Source of the DNA: a virus
Taxonomy: Duplodnaviria > Heunggongvirae > Uroviricota > Caudoviricetes
Virus record (IMG/VR): IMGVR_UViG_2684622669_000012
Location: 1 to 15,851 of that record
Length of the DNA stretch: 15,851 nucleotides
Reading direction: 5' to 3' (one strand)
A program made the position numbers and the translations under genes. Within the stretch, counting starts at the first letter, position 1. Every line of letters begins with the position of its first letter. The notes beneath the pieces were generated by a model. The model ran no database searches. It saw only the letters and a list, made by a program, of their open reading frames with translations, and was not told the DNA's origin. This document shows positions 7,945 to 8,634 of the stretch, in pieces.

Positions 7945-8021
7945 AAAAAAACCGCATGAGCGCGGTTATGCGCCGCGAATGACTTCGGGTTTCCACGCCC
8001 GGCACCCGTTTTATGAGGTGC
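7945..8021 (-). ncRNA. Candidate small RNA (~75 nt) upstream of rha
   Basis: On the minus strand: -35 TTGAAA (8051-8056), 17-nt spacer, -10 TATAGT (8028-8033), then about 70 nt ending in a hairpin ACCGC-gctcat-GCGGT (7951-7966) and a 7-T run (7945-7951). No experimental or homology support. Confidence 0.3.
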
Positions 8022-8634
8022 AGGTGCACTATAATTCCACCCGTTCTGGTTTTCAATAGCTACATTCAACATTTTCTCTACCTTTCATCACCTGAGTGAA
8101 CTTTGTTGATGCGGTGCCTGGTGCCTCCAGGTGACGTTAACCAGTTAACAATTAACGCCGGATGACTCACCCATAACACTCATGTTTTTAACTGTTCCGC
8201 GTGCGCTTAGCCGCATTCACCGCATCACAAAATTCACTTTAAAAAGGGCGGCAGAGCAGTCACGGAGTAAAACTGATACCGCCAAACGCCACCAGAAAAT
8301 TGATAACAGAGGGCGTTGTAGCGGGGTTGTCACTTAAGCGTATGGTCAACCTGACAACCCGGTGTCCTCAACGGGGAAGGAATAACCCAGCCATACTTAC
8401 CGCCGCGCCATTTCGCGGAGTGCCACAACCGGAAGCGCACGGTCGAATTAAATTTAACGACACCGTACAGAGAGACCAATTTCGCCGTGCGCTTTCGCGT
8501 TATGCCCTGGCTTTTCAGGGATATATCCTTTCAGTAAACTGTCAGTACCGGATTCTTATCCGTGTCCGGCGCACGACCACACGTGACAGCGTGTTGGTCT
8601 CCATTTTTAACCCAGAACCTCAATGGAGGATAAA

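Follow-up and report, generated by a model that had tools for sequence, protein, structure and literature searches.

Barquist et al. speak of an IsrK-C4 immunity system, which they equate with seqA and the CI RNA of P4, and they mention comparable systems in P1, P7, N15, and lambdoid prophages (PMC3632133). In P4, the literature regards CI as an RNA immunity factor (PMC3632133; PMC4825925). The outcome described there is premature termination of transcription, and seqA is presented as a target needed for immunity rather than an activator (PMC3632133; discussion in PMC4825925). In Gifsy-1, the isrK promoter yields both a terminated small RNA (sRNA) and the read-through leader of an antirepressor mRNA (Hershko-Shalev et al. 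2016; PMC4825925). The terminated RNA, 77 nt long, builds up in the cell and is active in trans, compensatory mutants having been made, and IsrK supplied in trans increases the translation of anrP about 140-fold (PMC4825925). The same leader carries a small open reading frame (ORF), orf45, which starts from an AUG at +107, was detected by western blot, and is both coupled to and needed for anrP translation (PMC4825925). Here, we analyzed a 15,851-nt stretch of DNA from a virus of the Caudoviricetes (IMG/VR record IMGVR_UViG_2684622669_000012, positions 1 to 15,851), hereafter called the window. A sequence-only reading had proposed that positions 7945-8056 of its minus strand, lying within an apparent N-terminal extension of the rha gene, specify an sRNA or a terminated leader controlling rha. 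With a probability of about 85%, we interpret this stretch as an isrK gene that belongs to an IsrK-C4 RNA switch lying ahead of an antirepressor-type rha gene in the early-left operon of a lambdoid prophage. The window element is the published IsrK-C4 system, that is, seqA/CI RNA in P4, a1b1/c4 in P1 and P7, and IsrK/orf45 in Gifsy-1. Its kind was therefore already known, as Barquist et al. had named the system and its P4, P1, P7, and N15 counterparts.

The whole window was scanned against Rfam, and three adjacent minus-strand matches exceeded the curated thresholds: DicF, isrK, and C4. All features described below lie on the minus strand unless otherwise indicated, and transcript positions are counted from +1 = 8021. 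The isrK model (RF01394) matches 8021..7945 with 67.2 bits, against a gathering score of 50 (E = 8e-13), and is covered from its first to its last position (1-77 of 77). The covariance-model scan suggested by the sequence-only reading is thus positive, and the proposal of a short noncoding RNA is borne out by a full-length match above threshold. The predicted IsrK-family sRNA (7945..8021, 77 nt) is made of hairpin 1 (8021..8002), hairpin 2 (8001..7986), and an intrinsic terminator. All the signals originally reported, a TTGAAA and a TATAGT hexamer separated by 17 nt and followed by a hairpin and a 7-T tract, are present at 8056..7945. The predicted sigma-70-type promoter (8028..8056; −35 at 8056..8051, −10 at 8033..8028) has 10 of 12 consensus matches and is the top-scoring promoter-like site in 6500..9500. 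The terminator (7945..7967) has a 7-bp stem and a 4-nt loop, AACCGCG-CUCA-UGCGGUU at 7967..7950, leading into a U7 tract at 7951..7945. It had been placed about 70 nt after the promoter. A terminator is indeed found there, but the RNA is 77 nt long and the terminator stem starts about 61 nt past the −10 hexamer. Because the −10 hexamer ends 7 nt ahead of position 1 of the isrK model and the match finishes with the U tract, the promoter and the terminator correspond to the two ends of a known RNA family.

Taken alone, matches to promoter and terminator consensus sequences prove nothing, because such sites are equally frequent in shuffled sequence. Promoter-like sites are not enriched in the region (6 found vs. 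5.1 expected), and promoter-like together with terminator-like sites are no commoner there than in shuffled sequence. These counts are what one would expect if the two signals had come together by chance. The probability of this explanation is nevertheless negligible, as it is refuted by the full-model Rfam match, by the covariation that backs the pairings described below, and by the conservation of the element in 2270 of 5426 complete Escherichia coli genomes. Among 63 distinct upstream regions of related modules, the same position holds at least eight different sigma-70-like pairs of −35 and −10 hexamers with a 17-nt spacer. The promoters of P4 (PLE), P1 (P51b), and Gifsy-1 (PisrK) align with these module promoters at the same distance from +1. 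A predicted sigma-70-type promoter thus sits at the expected start of IsrK, and its position is kept among related modules through sequence turnover. Similarly, the terminator stem sequences of the relatives differ, yet a hairpin and a T run are retained in each of them.

The second half of the extension contains an RNA that the sequence-only reading had missed. A C4-family antisense RNA (RF01695) is matched at 7833..7920 with 80.6 bits, well above the gathering score of 45. This is the counterpart of the orf45/STnc1160 region of Gifsy-1, the CI RNA of P4, and c4 of P1. Its minimum-free-energy structure is the family consensus (z = −4.58), with a long outer stem and two inner hairpins that leave two short segments, a′ and b′, exposed. 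The leader at 7832..7773 is also unusually structured (z = −4.16). The a′ cassette, UUUCCAC, occupies a single-stranded stretch of C4 (7855..7861, +161..+167), and the b′ cassette, UUCCGCGAUGA, lies in the 12-nt loop of C4 hairpin 2 (7868..7878, +144..+154).

These two segments of C4 are complementary both to IsrK (a1 and b1) and to the rha leader (a2 and b2). The a1 cassette, GUGGAAA, forms the loop of IsrK hairpin 2 (7990..7996, +26..+32), and the b1 cassette, UCAUUCGCGG, which pairs with b′, is in a single-stranded part of IsrK (7973..7982, +40..+49). In the rha leader, a2 is again GUGGAAA (7820..7826, +196..+202) and is complementary to a′. The b2 cassette, UCAUCGCGGAG (7795..7785, +227..+237; full feature 7784..7795), overlaps the rha Shine-Dalgarno sequence GGAGG at 7788..7784. 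These pairings were obtained by an ungapped complementarity scan of the predicted transcript and their energies from short-segment duplexes; RNAduplex applied to whole segments gave meaningless full-length "duplexes" and was replaced by this procedure. The b′:b2 complement is 11 bp long (−21.2 kcal/mol), a run matched by 22 of 5000 shuffles. The a′:a1 and a′:a2 pairings are each of 7 bp, with −10.6 and −9.1 kcal/mol, respectively, and b1:b′ consists in the window copy of 4 + 6 bp around a 1-nt bulge (−16.7 kcal/mol). An alternative pairing is available to the 3′ strand of C4: CUCACCACC (7844..7836) can pair over 9 bp with GGUGGUGAG (7814..7806), forming a hairpin (7806..7844) that presents a2 in its loop. 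As this hairpin and the C4 outer stem are mutually exclusive, the read-through transcript has alternative folds. A further segment complementary to a′, GGGUGGAA in the promoter spacer (8042..8035), was considered to be a chance occurrence; it shows no covariation with the a type, and it precedes the transcription start.

To place these pairings in a broader set, related modules were collected from 80 viral-contig loci identified through Rha homologues and from about 120 more identified by the pattern CGGGTGCCGGGN8CCCG, which is independent of the downstream gene. Parsing gave 183 modules, 109 of them unique, representing 53 types. On a conserved backbone, six short hypervariable cassettes change in concert: a1 and b1 in IsrK, a′ and b′ in C4, and a2 and b2 in the rha leader. 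Examples of such matched sets are CGTGGAAA / TTTCCAC / CGTGGAAA, ATTGCTAC / GTAGCAA / ATTGCTAC, TCACTAACG / CGTTAGTGA / TCACTAACG, and TCATCATGG / CCATGATGA / TCATCATGG. Every b′ type fits its own b1 and b2. As the 18 a types and 33 b types occur in 50 combinations, a and b reassort independently, and since the cassettes change together over all these types, we conclude that the IsrK, C4, and rha-leader RNAs pair. Cognate duplexes are consistently more stable than non-cognate ones: −10.8 vs. −4.6 kcal/mol for a′:a1, −9.6 vs. −5.8 for a′:a2, −12.3 vs. −4.3 for b′:b1, and −14.1 vs. −5.8 for b′:b2.

Formal counts of changed pairs were made on a gap-free alignment (A2) of 18 types. The a1:a′ helix has seven pairs, six of which are changed on both sides, with 96.8% of the cells paired (98.6% in an alignment of 52 sequences including Gifsy-1). 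The corresponding values are nine pairs, seven changed on both sides, and 95.1% for b1:b′; 11 pairs, eight changed on both sides, and 93.9% for b′:b2; and seven pairs, five changed on both sides, and 94-99% for a′:a2. Displacing one partner by one to three columns lowered the proportion of paired cells to 32-45%, and none of 500 shuffles reached the observed values. The C4 outer stem (17 pairs) is 100% paired, and compensatory changes are found both in this stem and in C4 hairpin 1. The hairpin presenting a2 is 95.1% paired over the 52 sequences including Gifsy-1, with four pairs changed on both sides. The 52-sequence MAFFT alignment (A1) was kept for this hairpin and for a1:a′ only, and was rejected for the a2 and b2 helices, as it is out of register between backbone groups there. 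Compensatory change in related prophages, anticipated by the sequence-only reading for the terminator hairpin, therefore preserves pairing in the a and b helices and in the C4 stems; the terminator pairs stand outside the formal count, the two terminator backbones being offset by one column.

Two arrangements were noted in the module set. One module (L092, 5193-5449, plus strand) is an apparent recombinant, in which the IsrK a1 ATTCTCAC mismatches its own a′ and a2 (UGUGGAAA / TTTCCAC) whereas its b cassettes have remained complementary. Tandem arrays of two or three units, each composed of IsrK, C4, and a 120-aa gene and spaced by 656 nt, are found in L099 (9652-9897, 10308-10553, and 10964-11209, minus strand) and also in L083 and L091. 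In these arrays, the a and b cassette type differs from unit to unit.

The following mode of action can be proposed. The isrK promoter would direct the synthesis of a 77-nt RNA ending at its own terminator. By analogy with c4 of P1 and P7, the CI RNA of P4, and IsrK of Gifsy-1, part of the transcripts would pass this terminator and carry C4 and rha. As in the same three systems, C4, either in cis or once processed, would pair with a2 and b2 and leave rha untranslated. Free IsrK, which bears a and b sequences like those of the mRNA, would then compete for a′ and b′ and turn rha translation on. An in-frame leader ORF starting from an AUG in the 5′ stem of C4 would probably be translated within the switch, and Rha would in turn be expected to act on the prophage switch. 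The idea of a terminated leader controlling rha is likewise supported by the Gifsy-1 homologue, in which a single promoter gives rise to the sRNA and to the read-through leader (PMC4825925).

Several points weigh against this interpretation. The c4-a1b1 model (RF03163), described in Rfam as "a1, b1 targets of C4 antisense RNA", matches the first two IsrK hairpins (8034..7982) in a more permissive scan with 25.7 bits (E = 3e-4), below its gathering score of 46.7; the a1 and b1 cassettes themselves are present and covary. The fold of IsrK by itself is of ordinary stability (z = −0.92). Because the b1 copy bears a 1-nt bulge, binding of IsrK to b′ is predicted to be weaker than that of the mRNA (−16.7 vs. 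−21.2 kcal/mol). The transcript ends of IsrK and C4 in the window are predicted ones, and the frame that crosses the module has stayed open, so that at least part of it may be translated. Finally, the direction of regulation is borrowed from Gifsy-1, and of all the steps the sign of the effect of IsrK is the most uncertain: P4 seqA is described as an immunity target (PMC3632133; discussion in PMC4825925), and in Gifsy-1 basal expression goes up when a1 is mutated in cis, a result not expected from a pure decoy model.

Some of these points would suit an element that works in cis only: a terminated leader, or attenuator, with a1 and b1 serving as C4 targets on the nascent transcript in the manner of P4 seqA and with no role for an sRNA in trans. 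The isrK match of P4, just past PLE, is above threshold, and seqA is described as a target site required for immunity (PMC3632133); the unremarkable stability of IsrK and its imperfect b1 in the window copy are also compatible with such an element. However, the terminated 77-nt species of Gifsy-1 accumulates and acts in trans. In addition, the strong terminator with its U7 tract has been retained despite sequence turnover, and Rfam records the isrK family as Hfq-binding. We therefore consider an exclusively cis-acting element to be unlikely and favor the IsrK-C4 switch with an sRNA acting in trans.

The gene model of the region has to be weighed against this switch. The 283-aa ORF (8072..7221) spans the promoter, IsrK, C4, and rha, and it begins upstream of the isrK −35 hexamer. 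Its first 99 codons (7776..8072) overlie the promoter, IsrK, C4, and the leader. From the internal AUG, rha itself (7221..7775) encodes a 184-aa Rha-family phage regulatory protein (PF09669, 109.7 bits; TIGR02681, 122 bits). The sequence-only reading had set the start of the Rha domain at this internal Met with a GGAGG ribosome-binding site. We agree, as the Met codon at 7775..7773 is preceded eight nt upstream by GGAGG (7788..7784), the PF09669 match lies downstream, and the codon-position signal of a coding sequence begins there. It was also right that no credible ORF lies between promoter and terminator: besides the 283-aa ORF, the only other minus-strand ORF over this interval is a 62-codon one whose TTG start is on the −35 hexamer itself.

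One could argue that the 283-aa ORF is a real gene, that its 99 additional codons encode an "Ash" N-terminal domain of Rha, and that the resemblance to a promoter and a terminator is incidental. The long form is annotated by RefSeq, as "Rha family phage regulatory protein" or "ash family protein", Rha/Ash proteins are treated as real in one study (PMC8951638), and the "Ash domain" is discussed in the literature on Stx phages as a domain of unknown function. The Pfam family Phage_ASH (PF10554, "Ash protein family") indeed matches residues 14-109 of the 283-aa ORF (7746..8033) with 59.7 bits, well above the cut-off of 26. This match takes in the whole profile, but it is coextensive with the RNA module and not with the ORF. 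Phage_ASH also matches the historic "cI" ORF of P4, which is laid over the CI RNA gene (L202, 8168..8584, minus strand), and NCBIfam has no family for the 98-aa extension.

The same ambivalence is found in the reading frame. The sequence-only reading expected the overlapping frame to accumulate stops in related prophages. The reverse was observed: in 87 of the 103 unique modules, no stop interrupts the frame as far back as the transcription start, or even farther, and stop triplets within the variable cassettes avoid the rha frame, with 3/32/45 in frames 0/1/2, or 3/18/18 when counted by distinct position (binomial P = 1.8e-4). Such an open frame is what a real gene would show, but the substitutions are not those of a coding sequence. 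Entropies by codon position are 0.29/0.32/0.39 and 0.56/0.54/0.53 in the module and 0.55/0.49/0.93 and 0.89/0.80/1.16 in rha. The third-position excess starts at rha and is absent from the module, and the amino acid sequence of the extension is not conserved. Of the two signs that would together have spoken for a protein, a conserved long frame and coding-type substitutions, only the first is thus found. Furthermore, three-way RNA covariation explains the variation, resulting in radical amino acid changes, and the frame, although open in most modules of the E. coli type, is interrupted by in-frame stops inside c4 of P1 and two codons ahead of orf45 in Gifsy-1, where it also shifts after the shorter b′ loop. 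Since a distance of 186 or 183 nt puts b1 and b2 in one codon phase, avoidance of stops in IsrK can mirror that in b2. Altogether, a genuine 283-aa protein is very improbable. The claim that the extension is not protein-coding can be upheld for the IsrK stretch, and the "extension" of Rha is largely a conceptual translation of RNA genes. Therefore, at least in these cases, the "Ash domain" is best read as what results when RNA genes, or a leader ORF with an unselected sequence, are translated conceptually.

The stop-free frame still calls for an explanation. By analogy with Gifsy-1 orf45, the likeliest one is a translated leader ORF starting from the AUG in the 5′ stem of C4 (7914..7916, +106), which is in frame with rha and equivalent to the start of orf45. 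In the window, this ORF continues into rha with no stop. Both RNAs would then be real, and ribosomes starting at 7916 would pass through C4, a2, and b2 into rha, the peptide sequence itself being irrelevant. Such translation might serve to open the structure, or it might produce a Rha longer by 47 residues. In 90 of the 103 unique modules, the ORF that begins with the +106 AUG extends to the main start codon or past it, and stops are avoided in b′, a′, a2, and b2. The homologous AUG of Gifsy-1 (+107) starts the western-detected orf45 required for anrP translation, and there as well as here the amino acid sequence is unconserved (PMC4825925). Against a general role, the open ORF is not universal: P1 has its in-frame stop in the b′ loop, and in a group of modules with a start at +265 the leader ORF ends 18 nt short of the start codon. 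Moreover, the AUG is buried in the 17-bp outer stem of C4. We give this version of events slightly less than an even chance. The frame over the IsrK part probably stays open by inheritance and because b1 mirrors the stop avoidance of b2; this is our own inference and a partial explanation.

A bolder possibility, which we regard as improbable, is that ribosomes translate both RNA genes, either from the +106 AUG or, on early-left operon transcripts after induction, from the AUG at 8072, and that selection keeps the frame free of stops. Should this be true, translation would melt the C4:b2 pairing and offer a second, C4-insensitive route to Rha, possibly as a long "Ash-Rha" isoform. A single stretch of DNA would then act as a promoter, specify two regulatory RNAs, and be translated as a leader, and the 18 × 33 a and b cassette types would evolve under three-way pairing and a no-stop constraint simultaneously. 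In a separate group of modules (L088, L103, and 13 others), in which the main start is at +255 and the first predicted gene encodes a 76-aa MANRKQ... protein with no NCBIfam family matched, the "Ash" frame extends over 148 to 336 codons and crosses the entire 76-aa gene in another frame.

The IsrK-C4 switch that we favor is widespread. The 189-nt stretch carrying IsrK and C4 is that found in the 2270 E. coli genomes, in up to nine places per genome. Among the matches listed, it is annotated as part of a "Rha family" or "ash family" protein or is unannotated, and never as RNA. For the window, the doubtful 283-aa gene model gives way to four features: the isrK promoter, the IsrK and C4 RNAs, and a Rha of 184 aa. 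The covarying cassette types indicate how co-resident prophages could keep their antirepressor switches apart, and they form a ready-made set for testing orthogonal RNA-RNA regulation. Three aspects appear worth recording: the wide annotation of an RNA stretch as protein, the large repertoire of a and b specificities, and the stop-free frame.

The gene order in the window is CI-like repressor, DUF1391, a 216-aa ORF, DicF, IsrK-C4-rha, RecE-like exonuclease, and integrase. The DicF RNA (8246..8297, full-length Rfam match, 76.4 bits) immediately precedes the isrK promoter. Close relatives have a truncated dicB pseudogene in the interval that separates DicF from the module (8078..8245 in the window) and a complete dicB past rha, so that the IsrK-C4-rha cassette looks inserted into the dicBF locus. 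A sub-threshold match to STnc100 (40.5 bits vs. 47) occurs at 8234..8102. At the far end of the prophage segment, a sok antitoxin RNA (14041..14215, plus strand, 116.9 bits) points to a hok/sok-type toxin-antitoxin locus. Two tRNA genes (1902..1974, minus strand, and 2966..3052, plus strand) flank an M90-peptidase gene. The second adjoins the tyrosine integrase gene (3108..4133, minus strand) and likely marks the prophage attachment site; the LysR-type regulator at 907..1857 is probably host DNA.

The closest described systems are those of Gifsy-1, P4, and P1/P7. In Gifsy-1, isrK, c4-a1b1, and C4 are matched with 79.3, 48.1 (above threshold), and 69.0 bits, the last over the orf45/STnc1160 region. 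The Gifsy-1 and window elements share the Rfam family, the 77-nt length, a promoter 7 nt upstream, an intrinsic terminator, a C4-type RNA about 25 nt downstream, an AUG at +106 or +107, the a1:a′ pairing, and a b2 segment lying over the Shine-Dalgarno sequence of an antirepressor-type gene. The Gifsy-1 mutations G28/G31 and C159/C162 (PMC4825925) map to a1 and a′, respectively, and the "helix b-I" of that study is therefore the a1:a′ pairing. The downstream proteins, Rha in the window and AnrP in Gifsy-1, are unrelated (BLASTP E = 0.09). In the window, the leader ORF and rha form one continuous frame, whereas orf45 ends in an overlapping AUGA. The b′ loop is of 12 nt in the window and 8 nt in Gifsy-1, and the a and b specificities differ. 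Finally, the module follows DicF in the early-left operon in the window but a Q-like antQ gene in Gifsy-1.

In P4, isrK (60.8 bits, just downstream of PLE in the seqA region) and C4 (74.9 bits, CI RNA) are matched above threshold in the same order as in the window, downstream of a constitutive promoter, and c4-a1b1 is matched with 44.1 bits. The promoters align, with TATAGT as the −10 hexamer in both, and the P4 a type CGUGAGAA is also present in our module set. The downstream P4 gene starts with MATT... and is in frame with an open "Ash" frame, a layout like that of the window. P4 differs in having about 84 nt more between IsrK and C4 and in its regulated genes, which are those of the P4 left operon and not rha.

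The immI region of P1 and P7, P51b - a1 b1 - c4 - a2 b2 - icd - ant, is collinear with the window. In the P1 record, a1 is at about +25, b1 at +39, c4 at +113, a2 at +193, b2 at +222, and the start codon at +240, compared with +26, +40, +102, +196, +227, and +247 in the window. The C4 model is above threshold in both (68.8 bits in P1), as is c4-a1b1 in P1 (51.0 bits), and b2 masks the ribosome-binding site of the first gene in both. The P1 a1b1 element is below the isrK threshold (35.1 bits), and the terminator-like hairpin of P1 is weaker than that of the window. The a and b sequences are the determinant of specificity in P1 and P7 as in the window modules; in 1990, Citron and Schuster reportedly found these two phages to be heteroimmune through c4. 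Since no icd gene lies between C4 and rha, b2 masks rha directly in the window.

Other modules of the same RNA family (L149, L086, and related ones; L203, 18471..18692) precede Icd-like genes of 71-73 aa (NF033153, also present in P1), genes of 120 aa, or the Gifsy-1 anrP gene. The first codons, MAT(I/V)PT, are common to unrelated downstream proteins, as if a recombination joint were located just inside the gene. The Stx phage phi24B (L204) has a C4-like element at 18348..18442, upstream of ant in the nin region. A link with its microRNA-size 24B_1 RNA, a reported repressor of the antirepressor, was considered and rejected, as 24B_1 is located at 45711-45692 and is distinct from this element.

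The window Rha is no more related to P1 Ant1 (BLASTP E = 2.5) than to Gifsy-1 AnrP, and the conserved unit is therefore the RNA module and not the protein. The class of mechanism has been known since the descriptions of P1/P7 c4, P4 CI RNA, and Gifsy-1 IsrK. Specific to the window are the Rha-family cargo, the absence of icd, the leader ORF fused in frame, and the site after DicF in the early-left operon.

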